Positions 4,827 through 15,661 of a DNA stretch of 32,000 nucleotides are shown here, one piece after another. The DNA is taken from the NCBI RefSeq assembly GCF_000010065.1, contig NC_006576.1, forward strand, positions 1,050,001-1,082,000, read 5' to 3'. The notes under the pieces are model-generated. The model worked only from the letters and a program-made list of their open reading frames with translations, made no database searches and had not been told where the DNA came from. Source of the DNA: Synechococcus elongatus PCC 6301. Lineage in GTDB: Bacteria > Cyanobacteriota > Cyanobacteriia > Synechococcales > Synechococcaceae. Position 1 is the stretch's first letter; each line of letters starts with the position of its first letter. The translations under genes were made by a program, and so were the position numbers.

Positions 4827-5525
4827 ATGGATCCAGTCACCCACATGAAACATGAAGTCGCGAAAGCAGCCGCGAGTCGGGTGCAATCTGGCATGGTGGT
4901 CGGGCTGGGCTCGGGCTCTACAGCAGCCCTCATGATTCAGTACTTGGGCGATCGCGTTCGCAATGGCGAACTCACCAATATTCAGGCTGTACCCACCTCT
5001 TTTCAGTCCTCAGTATTGGCGAATGAATACGGCATTCCGCTGACGACCCTGAACGAAGTCGATCGCATTGATATTGCAATTGATGGCGCGGATGAAGTTG
5101 ATCCACAACGCAACCTGATCAAAGGCGGTGGCGCTTGCCATACCCGCGAGAAACTAGTGGATGCGCGGGCTGAGCAATTCATTGTCGTCGTTGACAGCAG
5201 CAAACTGGTAGAGGCACTCGGAACAACCTTCTTACTGCCCGTGGAAGTGCTGCCGGAAGCTTACATTCAAGTCGGCAAAGCCTTGGAAAAATTGGGTGGC
5301 AAACCAGAACTGCGGATGGCGGTCAAAAAAGCAGGCCCAGTCGTGACTGACCAAGGCAACCTCGTTCTCGATGTGAAATTCGATCGCATTGACCAGCCCG
5401 CAGAACTGGAGAAAGCGATTAACAACATTCCAGGCGTGCTGGAAAACGGTCTGTTTGTTGGCTTGACCGATCTTGTACTCGTTGGTGAAGTTGACGGCGA
5501 TCGCGTTTCTGTGCGCGAGTTCTAG
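4827..5525 (+). CDS. rpiA: ribose-5-phosphate isomerase A
   Basis: Motifs [15 protein letters not shown] and [11 protein letters not shown] are present. The track start 4770 sits directly on the upstream terminator, so ATG 4827 (or 4800) is preferred. Confidence 0.9.
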
Positions 5526-5549: not shown

Positions 5550-5577
5550 AGCCAGCTTCAGATCGAAGCTGGCTTTT
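5550..5577 (+). terminator. intrinsic terminator after rpiA
   Basis: Perfect 10-bp stem AGCCAGCTTC / GAAGCTGGCT with a 5-nt loop, followed by TTTT. Confidence 0.7.
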
Positions 5578-5600
5578 CGCTGGCTGAAAACACTGTGATC

Positions 5601-5631
5601 AAAACGCCCTGAAGAGACAGCCTTCAAGGCG
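5601..5631 (-). terminator. intrinsic terminator after chlI
   Basis: Minus-strand RNA folds as CGCCUUGAAG-GCUGUCU-CUUCAGGGCG, a 10-bp stem. One position is G.U on the minus strand and a C.A mismatch on the plus strand. UUUU follows, 31 nt past the chlI stop. Confidence 0.6.
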
Positions 5632-5661
5632 TGGCAGCCTTTATCCAGTTGAAAATAGTGA

Positions 5662-8341: not shown

Positions 8342-10159
8342 ATGGCGAATCCCACATTTGGCAATCGCGACTCGGGCCGCAGTGTTGGCCGCTCCTATCA
8401 GTCGCTATGGCTGCTCTTGGGAATCACCACCGTCTTTTTTGGGGCTTTGGGTGGCCGCCTCGCCTACATGCAAATTCAGCAGGGCGAACGAAATCGCGAA
8501 CTGGCCAACGAGAATCGCATCCACCTGTTGCCTCGCCTCCCTGAACGTGGACGTATCCTCGACCGCGAAGGGCGTGTATTAGCGAGTAGCCGCCACGTTT
8601 ACTCACTCTATGTTTGGCCGCTGGCAATTAAAGACGACCGCTGGCCCGATACCCGACGCCGGCTAGCCGAGCTACTCAAAGTGCCGGAGTCTACGCTGCA
8701 AGCCCGCATCGATCGCCAGAAAGACAATGCCGCTTATCGAGTTCGCCTGGCCCAAAATCTGAGCCAACCCCAAGTTATTGCTTTTGAAGAAAATCGCCGT
8801 AACTTCATCGGCGTCGAAGTGGACTACGACAGCGTGCGCTACTACCCCAATGGGTCAATCGCAGCCCACGTTTTGGGGTACACCGGCGAGATTTCGGATG
8901 AGGAATTAAAACGGCGCGAGGAACAAGGATATCGACCTGGCGATGTCATTGGCCAAGCTGGACTCGAAGCCGCCTTTGAGAAGCAGTTGCGCGGTGAGTG
9001 GGGCGGTCAACAGGTAGAAGTGGATGCCCTCGGCAACGTCGTCCGCATTTTGGGCGACAAGCAAGCGCGAGCGGGCAAAGATGTCACCATCACACTGGAT
9101 CTCGATCTGCAAAAAGCAGCAGAGGCTGCGATCGGCAACAGCATGGGGGCGATCGTGGCGATCGATCCTCGGGACGGCAGCATCTTGGCGATGGTCAGCC
9201 GTCCCACCTACGATCCCAACGTCTTTGCCACCGAAATCAGCCAGGCCGAATGGGATCGACTGCAGCAGCTGGAATTCCCCTTCGTCAATCGCGCTCTGCA
9301 GTCCTTTCCGCCAGCCAGTACGTTCAAGATTGTGACCACAGCAGCGGCCTTGGAATCGGGCAAATATTCCCCCGACGCCGTGCTGCAAACCTTCCCCTTC
9401 CTGCGGGTTGGCGGCATTCAGTTTTGGGACTGGAATAATGCGGGCTTTGGTCCCCTCGGCTTTGTAGGCGCAATGCGCTATAGCAGCGACACCTTCTTCT
9501 ACCAAGTCGCTCAGCGGATTGGCGGCGACGCGATCGCAGCCATGTGCCGTCGGTTTGGCATGGGGCAGCGTACAGGGGTAGAGCTTGCCGCGGAGGAAGG
9601 GCGGGGTCTTGTGCCCGACAAAGCTTGGAAACTGAAGAACCTGAATGAGGAATGGACCGTCGGCGACTCGATCAATATGTCCATTGGTCAAGGCTTCTTA
9701 CTGCAAACGCCACTGCAAGTCGCGGTGATGTTTGCGATTCCAGCCAATAACGGCTTCCGGGTAAAACCGCACTTCCTCAAGGACGATCGCGACAGCAAAG
9801 AATGGCGCGAGGATCTGAAACTGAAGCCATCCACGATGAAAGTCATCCGGGACGGGCTAGTCTCAGTCGTCGCGGATGGAACTGGAGCTGCCCTGCGAGT
9901 GCCCTCACTGCCGCCCAACGCAGGCAAAACTGGAACAGCGGAGGATCCGCCCCGGCGATCGCACACTTGGTATGGCGGCTATGCACCGATTGAGAAACCT
10001 GAGATCGTCGTCGTTTCCTTCAACGAAAACTCAGGCGGCGGCGGTGGCAGTACAGCGGCTCCAAAAGTCCGTCAAGTGATGGAAGCCTACTTCCGCAAGA
10101 AGGCGCTTCGAGCTCAGGCCGCTAAGGGTAAGCAACCATCTGCCAACACCTCGCAGTAG
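8342..10159 (+). CDS. mrdA: penicillin-binding protein 2 (class B transpeptidase, elongation-type)
   Basis: N-terminal TM anchor, then IQQGERNRELANENRI...ERGRILDREGRVLA, typical of the PBP2 dimerisation domain. Motifs STFK (SxxK), SSD (SxD) and KTGTA (KTG) are present. The first ATG is at 8342; the track start 8264 is TTG. Confidence 0.85.
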   Translation: MANPTFGNRDSGRSVGRSYQSLWLLLGITTVFFGALGGRLAYMQIQQGERNRELANENRIHLLPRLPERGRILDREGRVLASSRHVYSLYVWPLAIKDDRWPDTRRRLAELLKVPESTLQARIDRQKDNAAYRVRLAQNLSQPQVIAFEENRRNFIGVEVDYDSVRYYPNGSIAAHVLGYTGEISDEELKRREEQGYRPGDVIGQAGLEAAFEKQLRGEWGGQQVEVDALGNVVRILGDKQARAGKDVTITLDLDLQKAAEAAIGNSMGAIVAIDPRDGSILAMVSRPTYDPNVFATEISQAEWDRLQQLEFPFVNRALQSFPPASTFKIVTTAAALESGKYSPDAVLQTFPFLRVGGIQFWDWNNAGFGPLGFVGAMRYSSDTFFYQVAQRIGGDAIAAMCRRFGMGQRTGVELAAEEGRGLVPDKAWKLKNLNEEWTVGDSINMSIGQGFLLQTPLQVAVMFAIPANNGFRVKPHFLKDDRDSKEWREDLKLKPSTMKVIRDGLVSVVADGTGAALRVPSLPPNAGKTGTAEDPPRRSHTWYGGYAPIEKPEIVVVSFNENSGGGGGSTAAPKVRQVMEAYFRKKALRAQAAKGKQPSANTSQ

Positions 10160-11247
10160 TAGTCCTGGAGTTGGCGCGTGGCTGCGTTCCAGCTCCAGCG
10201 TTCGGCTTCTTGACGAGCCGCTTGGCGTAGAATCTCGCGCTCTGCAGGGTTAGCCAACAAGCGCTGAATCGCAGCGATCGCCCCTTGTTCATCCTCAGGA
10301 TCGAACAGGAAACCATTAATGCCGTCGCTGACAATATCGGGAATGCCACCGGAATTGGCCGCCACGACCGGACAACCCGCTGCCATGGCTTCCAGCAAGA
10401 CTAGACCGAGGGTTTCGGTCCGGGAGGGAAAGACAAAAGCGTCAGCAGAAGCGTAGGCCGCCCCTAGCTGTTCCCCATGCAGATAGCCAATGAACTGCGT
10501 CTGGGTGCCAGCAAACAATTGCTCTAGTTCGGCCCGATGCGGGCCATCGCCGACCAAGGCCAAGCAAGCCTCAGGATTGGCATCCAAAATGGGTCGCAGG
10601 CGATCGATTTGCTTCTCGGCTGAGAGGCGTCCGACGTAGAGCAACAAGGGCGCAGTGGGCTTACCGCCACTGAGGCGATCGCGCATCGCAGCAGTAGCCA
10701 AGTCTGGCCGAAAGGTCTCGGTATCCACTCCTCGCTGCCAGAGGCAACAGTGCTCAATGCCGTGATCTGTCAGCTCCTGCACCATCGCGGTTGAAGTACA
10801 GAGGTTGATCGCTGCTTGGTTATGCGCCAGCTTCAGCAATTCCCAGAGCACCCCCTCCAAGACCCCCAGCCCGTAATGCTCAAGGTATTTCGGCAAATGG
10901 GTGTGATAGGACGCCACGAGTGGCACATTTAGCGCCTTGGCATAGTAGATGCCGCCCAACCCCAACACAGCCGGATTGACCACGTGGATCAGGTCGGGCC
11001 GGAACCGCTCCAAGGCTTTTCCCACTTTCGGCAACGGAAAAGCTAGCTTCAGCTCGGGATAGAGCGGTAGCGGAAAGCCTTTAACCCCATAGACTCGAGC
11101 CCCCTTGTGCTCGCGGAGCCCGCCGTCGGGGCAAAAAACCATGACGGTGTGGCCAAGACGCTGCAGGTGATCGACCGTGTGCCGAAGCCGCGTGACGATG
11201 CCATCCACTTTGGGGAGGAACGTCTCGGTAAAGAGAGCGATGCGCAT
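10114..11247 (-). CDS. sqdX: sulfoquinovosyl diacylglycerol synthase (GT4 glycosyltransferase)
   Basis: GT4 fold with FVFPSRTETLGLVLLEAMAAGCPVV. It lies 15 bp downstream of sqdB on the same strand, the arrangement described for Synechococcus PCC 7942. Confidence 0.9.
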   Translation of the reverse strand: MRIALFTETFLPKVDGIVTRLRHTVDHLQRLGHTVMVFCPDGGLREHKGARVYGVKGFPLPLYPELKLAFPLPKVGKALERFRPDLIHVVNPAVLGLGGIYYAKALNVPLVASYHTHLPKYLEHYGLGVLEGVLWELLKLAHNQAAINLCTSTAMVQELTDHGIEHCCLWQRGVDTETFRPDLATAAMRDRLSGGKPTAPLLLYVGRLSAEKQIDRLRPILDANPEACLALVGDGPHRAELEQLFAGTQTQFIGYLHGEQLGAAYASADAFVFPSRTETLGLVLLEAMAAGCPVVAANSGGIPDIVSDGINGFLFDPEDEQGAIAAIQRLLANPAEREILRQAARQEAERWSWNAATRQLQDYYCEVLADGCLPLAA

Positions 11248-11262
11248 AGAGAGAGTGCGACT

Positions 11263-12471
11263 TTAGCGCAGAGCGGTTTCAGGAGCGCTGAGAGCTTCAG
11301 CTTGATTACGGGTCCAGGCAGAAACGCAGGGAATTTTGGCGCGATCGCAGCGATCGGCAAACTTCTGCGCAATTTCTACCACTTCGCTCATCAGGCCATT
11401 GTCCAAGGTGGTCGGATTGAGGCCTAAATCAATCAAGCAGCGGTTGTCGACAATCAAGTCGTTCTCAAGGGCTTCCTTGCGTGGATTGGGCAGGTAGGCG
11501 ATTTCAGCACCGGTCAATGCCGCCACTTTCTCTGCCAAATCCTTGACTTGGTAGGTTTCCGTCATCTGGTTAAAGATGCGGACTTTTTCATTGGCTGCTG
11601 GCGGATTTTCGATCGCCAGTTGGACGCAGCGCACTGAGTCGCGAATGTGGATGAAGGCTCGGGTTTGGCCACCAACGCCATGCACAGTCAAGGGATAGCC
11701 GATCGCCGCCTGCATCAAGAAGCGGTTCAAGACTGTGCCGTAATCACCGTCGTAGTCGAACCGATTGGTCAGATCCGGGTGGAGATTACAGTGATCGGTG
11801 TTCGTGCCCCAGACAATACCCTGGTGAAGGTCGGTGACTTGGATGTTGTCGTTCTTGTTGTAGTAGTAGAACAACAATTGATCCAGCGTCTTGGTCATGT
11901 GATAGACGCTACCCGGATCAACGGGGTGAAGAATCTTCTCTTCAAAGCGTTGGCCATCCCGCTGGACGACTTCCACTTCTAAGTAGCCTTCAGGAATCGT
12001 AGCCCCGCGATGGCTACCGTATCCATAGACGCCCATGGTGCCCAAGTGGACAATGTGGGACTTGAGGCCGACATCCACACAGGCGCAGAGCAGATTGTGG
12101 GTGGCGTTGACGTTGTTATTGACCGTGAAGCGCTTATGCCATGCACTCTTCATTGAATAGGGGGCGGCGCGCTGTTCGGCAAAATGCACGATCGCATCCG
12201 GCTGCGTTTCTAGCAGTAGTGCACAGAGGCGATCGTAATCAGCCGCTAAGTCGAGATTGACAAAGCTAATCGGCTGCCCGCCCGTTTCTTGCCATGCCTT
12301 CAACCGGCGTTCAATCGTCGCGATCGGAGTGAGGGACTGAACCCCCAATTCCACGTCTGTCTTGCGGCGAACGAGGTTGTCAACAATGGTGACGGCGTGA
12401 CCTGCAGCAGCCAAATTGAGAGCGCAGGGCCACCCGCAGAAACCATCGCCACCCAATACAAGAATCTTCAC
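11263..12471 (-). CDS. sqdB: UDP-sulfoquinovose synthase
   Basis: Rossmann motif KILVLGGDGFCGW and catalytic YHMTK. The ~400-aa SDR-type length and overall similarity match SQD1/SqdB. It is followed by sqdX. Confidence 0.95.
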   Translation of the reverse strand: MKILVLGGDGFCGWPCALNLAAAGHAVTIVDNLVRRKTDVELGVQSLTPIATIERRLKAWQETGGQPISFVNLDLAADYDRLCALLLETQPDAIVHFAEQRAAPYSMKSAWHKRFTVNNNVNATHNLLCACVDVGLKSHIVHLGTMGVYGYGSHRGATIPEGYLEVEVVQRDGQRFEEKILHPVDPGSVYHMTKTLDQLLFYYYNKNDNIQVTDLHQGIVWGTNTDHCNLHPDLTNRFDYDGDYGTVLNRFLMQAAIGYPLTVHGVGGQTRAFIHIRDSVRCVQLAIENPPAANEKVRIFNQMTETYQVKDLAEKVAALTGAEIAYLPNPRKEALENDLIVDNRCLIDLGLNPTTLDNGLMSEVVEIAQKFADRCDRAKIPCVSAWTRNQAEALSAPETALR

Positions 12472-12564: not shown

Positions 12565-12735
12565 CTAGTGAGAAGCAGACACGGCAATCACTAACATCCC
12601 TGCAATCAGCACCAGGGCAGCCCCGCCCGTCCAGAGCCATTTTTTGCCCTGATCAGCGTTGGCTTCTGCTTGGTACATTCTGGGTTCTTTGGCGAAGTTA
12701 TTAAGCCGTCCGCCTTCTTCGGTGGTGTAGGGCAT
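12565..12735 (-). CDS. unlisted 56-aa single-TM protein with Hlip/Psb34-like N-terminal arm
   Basis: My own translation in a frame different from track ORF 12606..12797 gives MPYTTEEGGRLNNFAKEPRMYQAEANADQGKKWLWTGGAALVLIAGMLVIAVSASH*. One clear TM helix is present, along with the RLNNFA-x-EP-x-x-Y motif known from HliA/B N-termini and Psb34. It is below the 60-aa cutoff of the track. Confidence 0.5.
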   Translation of the reverse strand: MPYTTEEGGRLNNFAKEPRMYQAEANADQGKKWLWTGGAALVLIAGMLVIAVSASH

Positions 12736-12818: not shown

Positions 12819-13679
12819 CTAAACAGTGGCTGGTGACTGCCCGACCAAGCCTGTTTGCGGAGAGCTAGCGATCGCCGCCGATCGCGTGGGAATCCGACCC
12901 GCTTGAAAGGCCAATCGACCCGCGATCGTGGCCATGGCCATCGCTTGGGCCATCCGCGCCGGATCTTCGGCTTGAGCGATCGCGGTATTGATCAGCAGGG
13001 CATCGGCTCCTAGTTCCATCGCCTGTGCAGCTTCACTGGCGGTACCGATGCCGGCATCAACAACAACGGGAACCTTCGCGTTCTCAACGATGATGCGAAT
13101 GTTGGCTTCGTTGCGAATGCCTTGCCCCGAACCGATCGGCGAGCCCAGGGGCATCACCGTTGCGCAGCCCACTTCTTCTAAGCGCTTGGCAAGCAGTGGA
13201 TCGGCATTGATGTAGGGCAAGACTGCGAAGCCCTCTTTGACTAACTGCTCCGCCGCCTGCAACGTCCCGATCGGATCGGGCAGCAGATAGCGACTGTCGG
13301 GGATGACTTCCAGCTTGACGAAGTTGTTGTCTTCCTGACCCAGCAATTTCGCCATTTCCCGCCCGAGGCGGGCGACCCGAATTGCTTCCTCTGCCGTGGC
13401 ACAGCCGGCAGTGTTCGGTAGCATCCAGATCTTTTGCCAGTCCAGAGCCTCGGCCAAGCCTTCATGGCCGGGAGCATTGGTCTGCACTCGCCGCACTGCA
13501 ACAGTCACAATCTCGCAGCCACTGGCGGCAATGCTGGCGCGCATTTGCTCAAAGCTGCGGTATTTGCCCGTCCCCGTCATCAGGCGCGATCGAAACGACC
13601 GTCCGGCGATCGTCAAAACATCGGCAGTGGTGTCGGGGGTGGCGACCATGAACTCGGCATCAGCACAACTGTTTTCCAT
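12819..13679 (-). CDS. thiG: thiazole synthase
   Basis: Motifs [33 protein letters not shown] and VVVDAGIGT are present. The start is uncertain: ATG 13679 was chosen, ATG 13649 is possible, and the track's TTG 13724 is unlikely. Confidence 0.9.
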
Positions 13680-13738
13680 TATTCCGACTTGCCTGAGCCG
13701 AATCGAGATTGTGGATGTTGACAAAATTGCGACAAAGA

Positions 13739-13756
13739 GTTACAAAAGTTTACAGA
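13739..13756. promoter_or_regulatory. HLR1-type direct repeat (candidate RpaB-class response-regulator site)
   Basis: GTTACAAA-AG-TTTACAGA matches the consensus (G/T)TTACA(T/A)(T/A)-N2-(G/T)TTACA(T/A)(T/A) at 15 of 16 positions. It lies in the divergent intergenic region between thiG and a + strand gene. Confidence 0.5.
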
Positions 13757-13789
13757 GAAAGACAGTGACGACCTGCTAACGCTTACTCA

Positions 13790-13880
13790 GCGTTTCAGAA
13801 CAAGCATTTCGAGAACTGACCCTTCTCCTCCTCGACTCAGCTCTGTATCGACTGCCTCGGTTCTGCCGGGGCTTTTTTTT
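13790..13880 (+). ncRNA. candidate small RNA or terminated leader (5' end not determinable from sequence)
   Basis: Imperfect stem AGAACTGA (13812-13819) / TCAGCTCT (13837-13844) presents the 17-nt loop CCCTTCTCCTCCTCGAC, which is anti-Shine-Dalgarno-like. A GC hairpin plus T8 follows. No + strand CDS lies upstream. Confidence 0.3.
13854..13880 (+). terminator. orphan intrinsic terminator
   Basis: GCCTCGG-TTCTG-CCGGGGC forms a 7-bp GC-rich stem with one G.U pair, followed by TTTTTTTT. On the minus strand no U-tract follows the hairpin, so it is + strand specific. Confidence 0.6.
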
Positions 13881-13901
13881 GACCTCGACTGGCCTGCCAT
13901 A

Positions 13902-14465
13902 ATGGCGATGGTCGTTCGTCGAGATGTTATGCGATCGCTCTTTTTGTCTGCACTGCTAGCCGCCACGACGGTGGCCACCGGAGCACTACCGGCGACGGCT
14001 CAAAGCATTTTTAACCGTGATGCCTTTTTTAATCGCGTTACGCCTGAGCTAGCACCTTGGGCTTCTCCTCAGGTCTTGCTGGAGCGTCTGCCGCGCCAGT
14101 GGAAGGGCAACTTTAACTACGAAGGGAGTACCCAAGCCCAGAACTATCCGACTGGCCTACAAGTGACTGGCTATTCGATCTCCGGCCGGGTGCTGTCCTT
14201 CTCCGGTCTGCTCAACTGGGGCAGCGATCGCCAGTCTGATGTGTTTGGCTACATCGACAGCCAAACGGGCCAAATTGAGTTTTACGAACGGCAAAATCTC
14301 GGTCCCACGGCTGCAAGTTCCTCCGGTGGCGGCTTTATCGGCTTCTTAGCTCTGCCCGATGAGCAACGCATTCCCGGTGAAGCCCTGTTCTACTGGGTTC
14401 CCAACAGCATCATTCAGCCCACTGGGGTCCTAGCGATCAAACCCGCACCTGCGACGAATCGCTAA
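13902..14465 (+). CDS. secreted hypothetical protein (signal peptide)
   Basis: N-terminus MAMVVRRDVMRSLFLSALLAATTVATGALPATAQS looks like a Sec signal with an A-x-A-type cleavage site. I recognise no domain. Confidence 0.7.
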   Translation: MAMVVRRDVMRSLFLSALLAATTVATGALPATAQSIFNRDAFFNRVTPELAPWASPQVLLERLPRQWKGNFNYEGSTQAQNYPTGLQVTGYSISGRVLSFSGLLNWGSDRQSDVFGYIDSQTGQIEFYERQNLGPTAASSSGGGFIGFLALPDEQRIPGEALFYWVPNSIIQPTGVLAIKPAPATNR

Positions 14466-15267
14466 GCCGCTGCTCGGTGATGAGAGTCACACTCGTCCAC
14501 GCACCACTGGCATCGAAACTGCGGATCAGGCGCAGTCGGCGATCGCGACTGACGAGCCAGCCTAGTTCAAGCTGAAAAGGCGATCGAAGGGCCAGTTCTG
14601 TCGGGCAAGCACAGCTCACGCCACCGGGTAATAGCCAGATCGTGACTGCCTGTTGTTTGCCGACAAAGACCAGTTGCGATCCTTGAATTGGCGCAAGGGA
14701 TTCGATCGTGCGATCGCCCCAGTCGAGCTGGGACTGCAACTGATTCCCCACTTTCTCCAAACGGAGTTGGGTGGTGACGCGATCGGGCGATCGCCAGTCG
14801 GGATACCGAGTTTCGGCGATTCCGCTCCAGGTTCCCAGCAAGTCTTGAACGGTCAACGGAGCTTGTTGGAACGCATCAATGCCAGGTAGTGCCTCCCGAA
14901 TCAGGGTTAGCCCCTGTAGCTGGCGATCGCGGTACTGCCAGACCAAGCGGCGGCGCTGTTGATCGGCGAGCAAGCCCTGCTCTGCGCCAAACTCCCCAAA
15001 CGGGGCAAGCTGCATGCCACCTTGGGAAAAAGCCCCGTCGTCAAAGCCAAGGTAAGCGCGACTGACACTCGTGAAGGGAATCTCAACCCGGCGATCGGGT
15101 TGCTGCTGATAGTCAACAACGATTTTGGCCTGTTGGCGATCAGCACTAGCGCTGAGAGTCACGACCGTCGGCTGCTCAGACAGGATTTCGCCCTGCAGGT
15201 TCAGGCTGGTAAAGCTGCCTCGCCACTCACCTACATTTTCCAGCAAGCAATTCCAGACCGATTTCAT
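14437..15267 (-). CDS. DUF3598-family protein (two tandem beta-barrel-like halves)
   Basis: N-terminus MKSVWNCLLENVGEWRGSF matches my memory of the cyanobacterial DUF3598 N-terminus. The first ATG is at 15267; the track start 15285 is TTG. Confidence 0.75.
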   Translation of the reverse strand: MKSVWNCLLENVGEWRGSFTSLNLQGEILSEQPTVVTLSASADRQQAKIVVDYQQQPDRRVEIPFTSVSRAYLGFDDGAFSQGGMQLAPFGEFGAEQGLLADQQRRRLVWQYRDRQLQGLTLIREALPGIDAFQQAPLTVQDLLGTWSGIAETRYPDWRSPDRVTTQLRLEKVGNQLQSQLDWGDRTIESLAPIQGSQLVFVGKQQAVTIWLLPGGVSCACPTELALRSPFQLELGWLVSRDRRLRLIRSFDASGAWTSVTLITEQRLSDSSQVRV

Positions 15268-15345: not shown

Positions 15346-15582
15346 ATGAAACGAGAAGGGGTTCCCTCATTGACCGCCGATCAAGAAGCAGAGCTTCAAC
15401 ACATTCTCCAAGAGATTGATCGGGACTTTCTCAGTGACGGCAGAATCAACTTGCAAAAGGCACGGGCAATCGTGCAGCTTTCGCAGCAACTAGCACCCGT
15501 ACAAGCTGAAGTGCTCTACCGGATCCGCCAAGCCATTCGCGAGCGCTGGGGGGATCGCCTAGACGTGGAATTCGAGGATTAA
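15346..15582 (+). CDS. hypothetical protein (78 aa, acidic, helical)
   Basis: ATG-initiated ORF in an otherwise empty gap. No recognisable motif. Confidence 0.5.
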   Translation: MKREGVPSLTADQEAELQHILQEIDRDFLSDGRINLQKARAIVQLSQQLAPVQAEVLYRIRQAIRERWGDRLDVEFED

Positions 15583-15590
15583 AGCTTCAG

Positions 15591-15661
15591 AGCGGGCTGC
15601 GGGAATCGAACCCGCATCATTAGCTTGGAAGGCTAAGGTTTTACCACTAAACTAAGCCCGC
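15591..15661 (-). tRNA. tRNA-Gly (anticodon UCC)
   Basis: Reverse complement reads GCGGGCTTAGTTTAGTGGTAAAACCTTAGCCTTCCAAGCTAATGATGCGGGTTCGATTCCCGCAGCCCGCT. It has a 7-bp acceptor stem, a CTTCCAA anticodon loop and a GGTTCGATTCC T-arm. Confidence 0.95.

Follow-up and report, generated by a model that had tools for sequence, protein, structure and literature searches.

Locus and published transcript

The window, by which we mean the whole stretch of 32 kb analyzed here, is identical in every base to the reverse strand of the PCC 7942 chromosome, such that a window position x equals 570,879 − genome coordinate. With this conversion, the coordinates of 10 genes, Synpcc7942_0571 to 0580, in the PCC 7942 gene table (Vijayan et al., 2011) coincide exactly with ORFs of the window, and the position of the rRNA operon in the window agrees with the gap expected from the same table. 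On one side, the spacer of interest is bounded by the divergent gene thiG (Synpcc7942_0576, Pfam label ThiG), which occupies positions 12819–13679 of the minus strand (557,200–558,060 in PCC 7942). On the other side lies Synpcc7942_0575, a plus-strand gene for a signal-peptide protein that gave no Pfam match. Its product is 100% identical to a protein that NCBI assigns to Synechococcus elongatus. The annotated coordinates of the gene, 556,414–556,977, convert to window positions 14465–13902; the start is revised below, so that we place the gene at 13929–14465, as a neighbor outside of the small RNA. Beyond thiG, psb34 (Synpcc7942_0577, label PF26394) is found on the minus strand at 12565–12735 (558,144–558,314), 1.0 kb from psrR1. 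Upstream of psrR1 on the plus strand, the nearest coding sequence ends at 10159, several kilobases away, as had been stated in a preliminary description of this DNA. An Rfam search of the whole window at the gathering threshold returned rRNA and tRNA only, and a megablast search of the psrR1 region against plasmids gave no match.

For this spacer, Vijayan et al. (2011) listed the non-coding transcript 952 (557,130→557,000, minus strand, 131 nt) with a mean RNA-seq coverage of 109, high confidence, 0% antisense and no Rfam homology. Mapped onto the window, transcript 952 runs from 13749 to 13879 on the plus strand, and is the discrete short transcript ending near 13880 that the preliminary description had anticipated. 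The published ends look as if they had been rounded to 10 nt, so that they do not give the start site to single-base precision. Tan et al. (2018) recognized transcript 952 as the homolog of PsrR1, together with a counterpart of 131 nt in UTEX 2973 (start at CP006471:11,213), and reported a high-light log2FC of 5.79 in that strain, that is, about 55-fold induction. In addition, RNA polymerase peak 100 of Piechura et al. (2017), with its maximum at 557,032/557,023, has its summit at 13847/13856 of the window, inside the RNA. The values of this peak were 1.31, 6.09 and 1.80 at 0, 15 and 60 min in high light, which corresponds to a 4.6-fold rise of RNA polymerase on psrR1 (+2.2 log2) after 15 min; in shade, they were 1.59, 0.83 and 0.65. 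Piechura et al. (2017) assigned both this peak and the RpaB peak described below to Synpcc7942_0575. The published transcript and ChIP data are from PCC 7942 and the induction figure of Tan et al. (2018) is from UTEX 2973; our own contribution is the mapping onto the window. Thus mapped, the published data establish a discrete transcript, its high-light induction, RpaB occupancy and a rise of RNA polymerase at psrR1. The PsrR1 RNA of S. elongatus is a real gene that has already been described, and it is not new.

The promoter and the RpaB-binding region

The psrR1 promoter on the plus strand has a −35 box TTGACA (13718–13723), which is invariant in the relatives of S. elongatus, and, 17 nt past it, a −10 box TACAAA (13741–13746). 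The promoter scan tool missed the latter because it demanded a T at position 6 of the hexamer; the homologous promoters have TACATT, TATACT or TAAATT where S. elongatus has TACAAA. A TTGACA at 17 nt from the −10 box is also present in the verified PsrR1 and psb34-PsrR1 promoters. From this geometry, a start at 13752–13754 and an RNA of about 127–129 nt are predicted, and we place the small RNA of about 129 nt at 13752–13880 of the plus strand, compared with the rounded published ends of 13749–13879. The exact start at 13752–13754 is a prediction from the promoter sequence. A start between 13757 and 13830 and an RNA of 70–100 nt belonging to the RpaB/HLR1-controlled class had been expected previously. 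The class was named correctly, and the RNA is PsrR1 itself, but the start appears to lie further upstream, at about 13749–13754 inside the second HLR1 octamer, and the length is about 129–131 nt.

The HLR1 repeat GTTACAAA-AG-TTTACAGA (13739–13756, plus strand) matches 15 of the 16 positions of the consensus used here, which consists of two octamers (G/T)TTACA(T/A)(T/A) with 2 nt between them. The sequence thus bears out the initial report of this element. When up to one mismatch is allowed, this is the single occurrence of the pattern on either strand of the 32 kb window, and 100 shuffled sequences gave none. The −10 box is contained in the first octamer of the repeat. Altogether, there are four phased octamers, TTGACAAA / GCGACAAA / GTTACAAA / TTTACAGA, which start at 13718, 13729, 13739 and 13749, and the octamer pair GCGACAAAGAGTTACAAA scores 14/16 against the HLR1 consensus. 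This four-octamer array (13718–13756) is an extended RpaB-binding region that spans the whole core promoter, with the canonical HLR1 as its last pair.

Both the −10 box and the start site lie under the canonical HLR1, the center of which, at 13747.5, is at about −5. Riediger et al. (2019) described a repressive class of HLR1 elements that overlap the start site and are centered at −5 (range −38 to +23), and another class that is found at −66 to −45. The location over the −10 box and start therefore puts the psrR1 element into the repressive position class, and, by analogy with Synechocystis, RpaB would repress the psrR1 promoter in low light. Binding of RpaB over 13739–13756, which had been suggested as a check, is borne out by the published ChIP-seq peak 49 (556,873–557,367; Piechura et al., 2017), the maxima of which in two replicates, 557,123 and 557,118, convert to window positions 13756 and 13761, at the edge of the HLR1. 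The enrichment of RpaB over mock was 7.68, 10.26 and 8.94 at 0, 15 and 60 min of a high-light pulse (Piechura et al., 2017). That the enrichment at psrR1 does not fall in high light is a poor fit with a simple repressor-release model. The S. elongatus genes hliA and rpoD3 are similar to psrR1 in that octamer direct repeats cover the core promoter, RpaB is bound in vivo, and expression is induced in high light. However, these two genes have two octamers, whereas psrR1 has four phased ones, and at psrR1 the RpaB enrichment is not lowered after the high-light pulse.

RNA structure, conservation and the PsrR1 family

The minimum-energy fold of PsrR1 reaches −36.6 kcal/mol, modestly better than shuffled sequences (z = −1.9). 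It comprises a 5′ hairpin, a helix between the 5′ GAGAA and UUCUC, a stretch CUCC that is exposed, one more, small hairpin, and the terminator. The 5′ domain hairpin (13774–13806) has the core stem AACGCU/AGCGUU (13778–13783 / 13789–13794) and a variable 5-nt loop. Across the clade, the stem is kept while the loop varies freely (UACUC, CUAAC, CUCAC); the changes seen in relatives are one double change from U-A to G-U, one change from A-U to G-U, and one break at the end of the stem. Because only three distinct sequences are involved, the conservation of this hairpin is weak evidence.

The pyrimidine tract CCCUUCUCCUCCUC (= CCCTTCTCCTCCTC; 13820–13833), which is invariant in all relatives and coincides, in the alignment, with CU-rich blocks that are conserved in PsrR1, is a candidate anti-Shine-Dalgarno seed. 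Within the tract, CUCC (13828–13831) is predicted to be unpaired with a probability of at least 0.95 in the window and in the related loci L122 and L124, and UUCUC (13823–13827) is predicted to pair with the 5′ GAGAA. The preliminary description had proposed instead a loop-displaying hairpin with the stem 13812–13819 / 13837–13844. The respective segments, AGAACTGA and TCAGCTCT around CCCTTCTCCTCCTCGAC, are indeed complementary with one A/C mismatch, but the hairpin itself is disfavored: its pair probability is about 0, and a fold that includes it has −31.3 compared with −36.6 kcal/mol, a cost of 5.3 kcal/mol. The octamer CCTCGACT is present twice, at 13830–13837 and 13883–13890, as had been reported, and both copies are invariant in the relatives; the estimated chance of an octamer being repeated within about 170 nt is about 0.2, so that the repeat is not improbable on its own.

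The intrinsic terminator (13854–13880, plus strand) consists of the stem-loop GCCTCGGT-TCT-GCCGGGGC (13854–13872) and a U8 tract (13873–13880), in agreement with the GC hairpin and T8 originally described. Its stem, CCUCGG/CCGGGG, has the same letters as the terminator of the PsrR1 family, and the hairpin is part of the minimum-energy fold in all three clade sequences. No second terminator-like site is present from 13000 to 14600, a region for which a simple scan expects 1.9 ± 1.2 sites per shuffle. As a pattern, the terminator is thus not above chance, and the functional claim rests on the mapped 3′ end of the published RNA at 13879. RNAalifold applied across phyla recovered the terminator and nothing else, and the covariation of the terminator across the loci of the genome scan described below is uninformative because the search pattern had fixed those letters.

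Three related loci were found via the neighboring protein, with protein identities of 88% and 73%; L125 (CP144288) was left out as a poor assembly, in which thiG is broken, 0575 is truncated, and both the HLR1 and the terminator contain indels. The promoter (13718–13751) is 97% identical to the window in both L122 and L124, and the RNA (13752–13880) is 94% and 85% identical, respectively. The corresponding values are 89% and 80% for the thiG coding sequence, 81% and 71% for that of 0575, and 71% and 68% for the thiG-proximal spacer (13680–13717), and the spacer at 13881–13901 is 100% and 90% identical to the relatives. Thus, in these two relatives, the promoter and the RNA of psrR1 have diverged less than the coding sequences on either side. 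The structural elements fared differently in the conservation check that had been proposed: in L124, the terminator shows changes from U·G to U-A with pairing kept, but the stem 13812–13819 / 13837–13844 loses one G-C pair, which has become C/C.

The search with the curated Rfam covariance model of PsrR1 (RF02701), also proposed at the outset, had a negative outcome. The window scored 14.4 bits, below the gathering score of 42 (E = 2–4.5), and the match comprised model positions 42–79 only, that is, the 3′ half with UUCUCCU and the terminator. Judged by this score, sequence homology alone is weak. A scan of species-representative genomes, which selected for a pattern of a CU block, CCUCGG...CCGRGG and a U-run, yielded at least 25 cyanobacterial PsrR1 loci above the Rfam threshold, with 42–80 bits; S. 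elongatus was not among the loci listed. Covariance models built from 23 and 39 members gave the window 20.7 and 21.2 bits (E about 0.02 by a rough calibration), with 13800–13880 as the only match in the window at E <1; the relatives scored 24.1 bits (L124) and 21.5 bits (L122). The model alignment is colinear, UCUCCUCcUCGAC--UCAGCUCUGU of S. elongatus being aligned to the consensus UAUCUCuCA.UcGACAUUgAgUUCUCCU. The 3′ module of PsrR1 is present, with UUCUCCUCCUC at 13823–13833, the unpaired CUCC, CCUCGG/CCGGGG, and U8.

PsrR1 of Synechocystis sp. PCC 6803 (SyR1, RF02701) is similar to the S. elongatus RNA in its length of about 130 nt, its strong high-light induction, its RpaB/HLR1 promoter, and its CU-rich UUCUCCU block that is followed by a CCUCGG/CCGRGG terminator and a U-run. 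In S. elongatus, in contrast, the first of the CU blocks is enlarged to UUCUCCUCCUC, and the terminator-adjacent CU block is degraded to CUCUGU or, in an alternative alignment, is separated from the terminator by 19 extra nt. The promoter layouts also differ: in Synechocystis-like loci, the HLR1 covers the −35 box and the spacer, whereas in S. elongatus it covers the −10 box and the start, with two additional octamers upstream. The verified PsrR1 genes of Crocosphaera, Scytonema and others have the same layout as S. elongatus, TTGACA-17 nt-TAnnnT with an HLR1 over the −10 box and start, and the Crocosphaera loci have the four-repeat arrangement, GTTGACAAAATT and a 5′ GACAGU in common with S. 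elongatus. The RNA lengths predicted from the layout are 129 nt for S. elongatus, 128 nt for Crocosphaera, and 131 nt for a Synechocystis-like locus, and the published length of Synechocystis PsrR1 is 131 nt. As far as the letters go, the RNA sequence is weak but consistent evidence for membership in the PsrR1 family; far stronger evidence comes from the promoter.

In loci of Nostocales and Pleurocapsales, PsrR1 is preceded by an ORF of 56 codons, which is Psb34; the PsrR1 core starts at the stop codon of this ORF or immediately behind it, and a PsrR1-type HLR1 promoter is located about 42 nt upstream of the psb34 ATG. In two loci, all that is left of psb34 is a C-terminal remnant within an sRNA that is driven by an HLR1 promoter; one locus has two tandem copies of PsrR1. 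The identification of Psb34 rests on the precomputed PF26394 label and on BLASTP, in which the psb34 product of the window matched the Nostoc ORF directly preceding PsrR1 with E = 5e-8; hmmscan against a local copy of Pfam gave no match for either of the two Psb34 proteins.

Alternative readings, proposed function and linkage to psb34

We are highly confident that the region is the psrR1 gene of S. elongatus, with an RpaB/HLR1 promoter, an RNA of about 129 nt, and its own terminator, and that it encodes a trans-acting sRNA. An alternative that the preliminary description had raised is a premature-termination leader of the secreted-protein gene. The RNA would then be a terminator-controlled leader (“actuaton”) of 0575, whose expression would depend on regulated read-through, with most transcription from the HLR1 promoter ending at the terminator. 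The arrangement invites this reading, since the annotated ATG of 0575 follows the U-tract after only 21 nt, the published 0575 transcript has a 5′UTR length of 0, so that no separate start was mapped, and the authors of the ChIP study attributed the RpaB and RNA polymerase peaks to 0575. Moreover, cyanobacterial sRNA genes located ahead of coding regions have been described, and psrR1 resembles the actuatons reviewed by Kopf and Hess (2015) in being an sRNA gene with a terminator directly upstream of a gene on the same strand. However, the expression of 0575 does not follow the sRNA promoter: after 15 min of high light, the 0575 mRNA changed by −0.77 log2, whereas RNA polymerase on the sRNA increased by the 2.2 log2 mentioned above. 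The ATG at 13902 is indeed the next one after the T-tract, as had been noted, but in L124 and L123 the upstream ATG lies 32 nt from the ATGCGATCG start, and the gene call begins at the equivalent of 13929. Because the upstream ATG is out of frame in these two relatives, the start of 0575 is taken to be the ATG at 13929 (MRSLFLS..., signal-peptide-like), and the annotated start is probably 27 nt too far upstream. A start at 13929 leaves room for a promoter of its own, for which TGCCATAAT (13895–13903, plus strand), invariant in the relatives, is the predicted extended −10 box; a separate 0575 promoter is probable. In other species, PsrR1 homologs adjoin unrelated genes or follow psb34, and the linkage of 0575 to PsrR1 is confined to the S. 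elongatus clade. Together with the strong terminator and the discrete transcript at psrR1, these observations make the leader very unlikely.

It had also been suggested that the HLR1 might serve thiG. In this case, the RpaB site would mainly control the divergent thiG(-psb34-sqdB) operon, and the plus-strand RNA would be incidental. The candidate boxes on the minus strand do exist (TTGTCG at 13730–13735 and CACAAT at 13708–13713, with 16 nt between them), the octamer array overlaps the −35 candidate, and psb34, which belongs to the thiG transcript, uses a PsrR1-type promoter elsewhere. However, thiG mRNA changed less than about 2-fold over the high-light and shade series, and thiG is not listed among the targets of RpaB; the octamers are oriented and spaced so as to match the plus-strand promoter, as in other PsrR1 promoters; and the RNA polymerase summit lies over the body of the plus-strand RNA, not towards thiG. 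We regard a main role in thiG expression as very unlikely. The probability that an HLR1-like repeat, a CU tract, and a hairpin with a T-run merely co-occur by chance in an ordinary intergenic spacer is negligible. Such a coincidence would be compatible with a terminator scan that does not exceed the shuffle expectation and with an Rfam match that is not significant, but not with a single HLR1 in the window that is absent from all shuffles, nor with a psrR1 region that is conserved above the flanking genes, and it is excluded by the published transcript and by the RpaB and RNA polymerase peaks at psrR1.

For the psrR1 gene as an HLR1-controlled sRNA gene, the following mechanism can be proposed. 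In low light, phosphorylated RpaB would occupy the HLR1 over the −10 box and start and limit initiation. After a shift to high light, the sigma-70-type psrR1 promoter would fire, and an RNA of about 129 nt that ends at its own intrinsic terminator would be made. The PsrR1 of Synechocystis represses mRNAs such as psaL, psaJ and cpcA at their ribosome-binding regions. By analogy, the exposed CU-rich segment of the S. elongatus RNA may pair with mRNAs for photosystem I and the phycobilisome at their ribosome-binding regions; such pairing would block translation and expose the mRNAs to RNase E, and would thereby trim light harvesting. Both the targets and the pairing mechanism are thus carried over from Synechocystis to S. 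elongatus.

The finding as such is of small significance, since publications already cover the RNA, its induction by high light, and the RpaB peak. It is of value for annotation, in that the curated Rfam model does not detect the divergent PsrR1 of S. elongatus, and the RpaB and RNA polymerase peaks are listed in the source tables under Synpcc7942_0575 instead of the sRNA. The presence of psb34 in the neighborhood is relevant to psrR1, given that the two are combined in a single unit in other cyanobacteria. The psb34-PsrR1 units of Nostocales and Pleurocapsales share with S. elongatus psrR1 the TTGACA-17-TAnnnT promoter, the HLR1 over the −10 box and start, the ...ACAUA... motif, and the 3′ module. 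They differ in that psb34 is transcribed first, whereas in S. elongatus the RNA does not code for protein and psb34 is found at a distance of 1 kb on the opposite strand. The psb34 coding part is likewise absent from the PsrR1 loci of Crocosphaera and of Synechocystis-like genomes. It seems possible, although on balance not quite probable, that PsrR1 was originally the 3′ module of an ancestral RpaB/HLR1-driven psb34 unit and not a free-standing sRNA gene. A literature search that did not extend to the primary description of PsrR1 gave no paper in which PsrR1 is mentioned along with Psb34 or ssl1498, and the novelty of the linkage is uncertain. If this origin is correct and previously undescribed, a single promoter would link the expression of an assembly factor of photosystem II with that of an RNA that represses the synthesis of photosystem I and the antenna. 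The linkage could bear on the origin of this regulator and on the possible processing of PsrR1 from an mRNA in filamentous cyanobacteria.

RpaB and RNA polymerase at the psrR1 promoter

In the published ChIP tables, the RpaB site at the HLR1 motif of psrR1 (window 13739-13761, that is, PCC 7942 557,118-557,140) shows enrichment values of 7.7, 10.3 and 8.9 in the course of a high-light pulse, with no drop, and RNA polymerase increased 4.6-fold while RpaB enrichment at the motif stayed undiminished (Piechura et al., 2017). The source tables attribute the peaks of both proteins to the protein gene Synpcc7942_0575, not to the sRNA.

The downstream gene and neighboring transcripts

The annotated start of Synpcc7942_0575, the same-strand gene downstream of psrR1, at window 13902 is probably wrong, judging from the alignment of relatives. 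Two relatives have the upstream ATG in a different reading frame, and the gene call in these two begins at the equivalent of window 13929, where a signal-peptide-like sequence (MRSLFLS...) starts. At window 13895-13903, the conserved TGCCATAAT resembles a promoter of the extended −10 type. The octamer CCTCGACT is present at window 13830-13837 and again at 13883-13890, the second copy being located between the PsrR1 terminator and this predicted promoter; both copies are invariant in all relatives.

Two further transcripts have been listed for PCC 7942 (Vijayan et al., 2011). Transcript no. 183 (window 13739-13939, minus strand; PCC 7942 556,940-557,140, plus strand), which runs antisense across PsrR1 towards thiG, is weak and of low confidence, with a mean coverage of 2.1. 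Transcript no. 182 (window 15502-15589, minus strand) is 88 nt long and very abundant, with a mean coverage of 774. It lies directly 3′ of tRNA-Gly(UCC) (15590-15661, minus strand) and overlaps the 3′ end of Synpcc7942_0573 in antisense orientation; it may represent a stable trailer of this tRNA or an sRNA linked to it.

On the minus strand, thiG and psb34 are followed by an epimerase-type gene (402 aa; window 11263-12471) and a GT4 glycosyltransferase gene (377 aa; window 10114-11247), which we take to be, probably, sqdB and sqdX of sulfolipid synthesis. The first three of these four genes form a single transcript according to Vijayan et al. (2011).

PsrR1 and psb34 in other cyanobacteria

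For picocyanobacteria, PsrR1 homologs have been reported as absent or undetectable. A locus from one member of this group, a Cyanobium MAG (L057:3925-4018, plus strand), contains a CU-rich stretch (CACCUCCUCCUCG ... UUCUCCUCC) directly followed by a GC hairpin and a U-run; this region had no match to our in-house PsrR1 model at E <= 0.01.

Among the matches listed, Rfam-verified PsrR1 starts at or just past the psb34 stop codon in Nostocales and Pleurocapsales (loci L038:5201-5456, L009, L026, L077, L078, L088, L109, L082 and L115). At these loci psb34 has 56 codons, and an HLR1 promoter of the same type as that of psrR1 is located about 42 nt upstream of its ATG. In S. elongatus, in contrast, psb34 (window 12565-12735, minus strand) is on the opposite strand, 1.0 kb from psrR1. 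No mention of a linkage of PsrR1 to Psb34 was found in the literature searched.

At L082, one psb34 gene is followed by two tandem PsrR1-like copies (5055-5136 and 5556-5643, minus strand; 38 and 60 bits with the in-house model). Some HLR1-driven PsrR1 RNAs retain a C-terminal psb34 coding remnant (...GVS stop), and a psb34 copy at L040 carries an in-frame stop. Together, the loci of this set (L047:327-470, L105:3863-4040 and L040:466-700, all minus strand) appear to capture the coding part at different stages of its loss.
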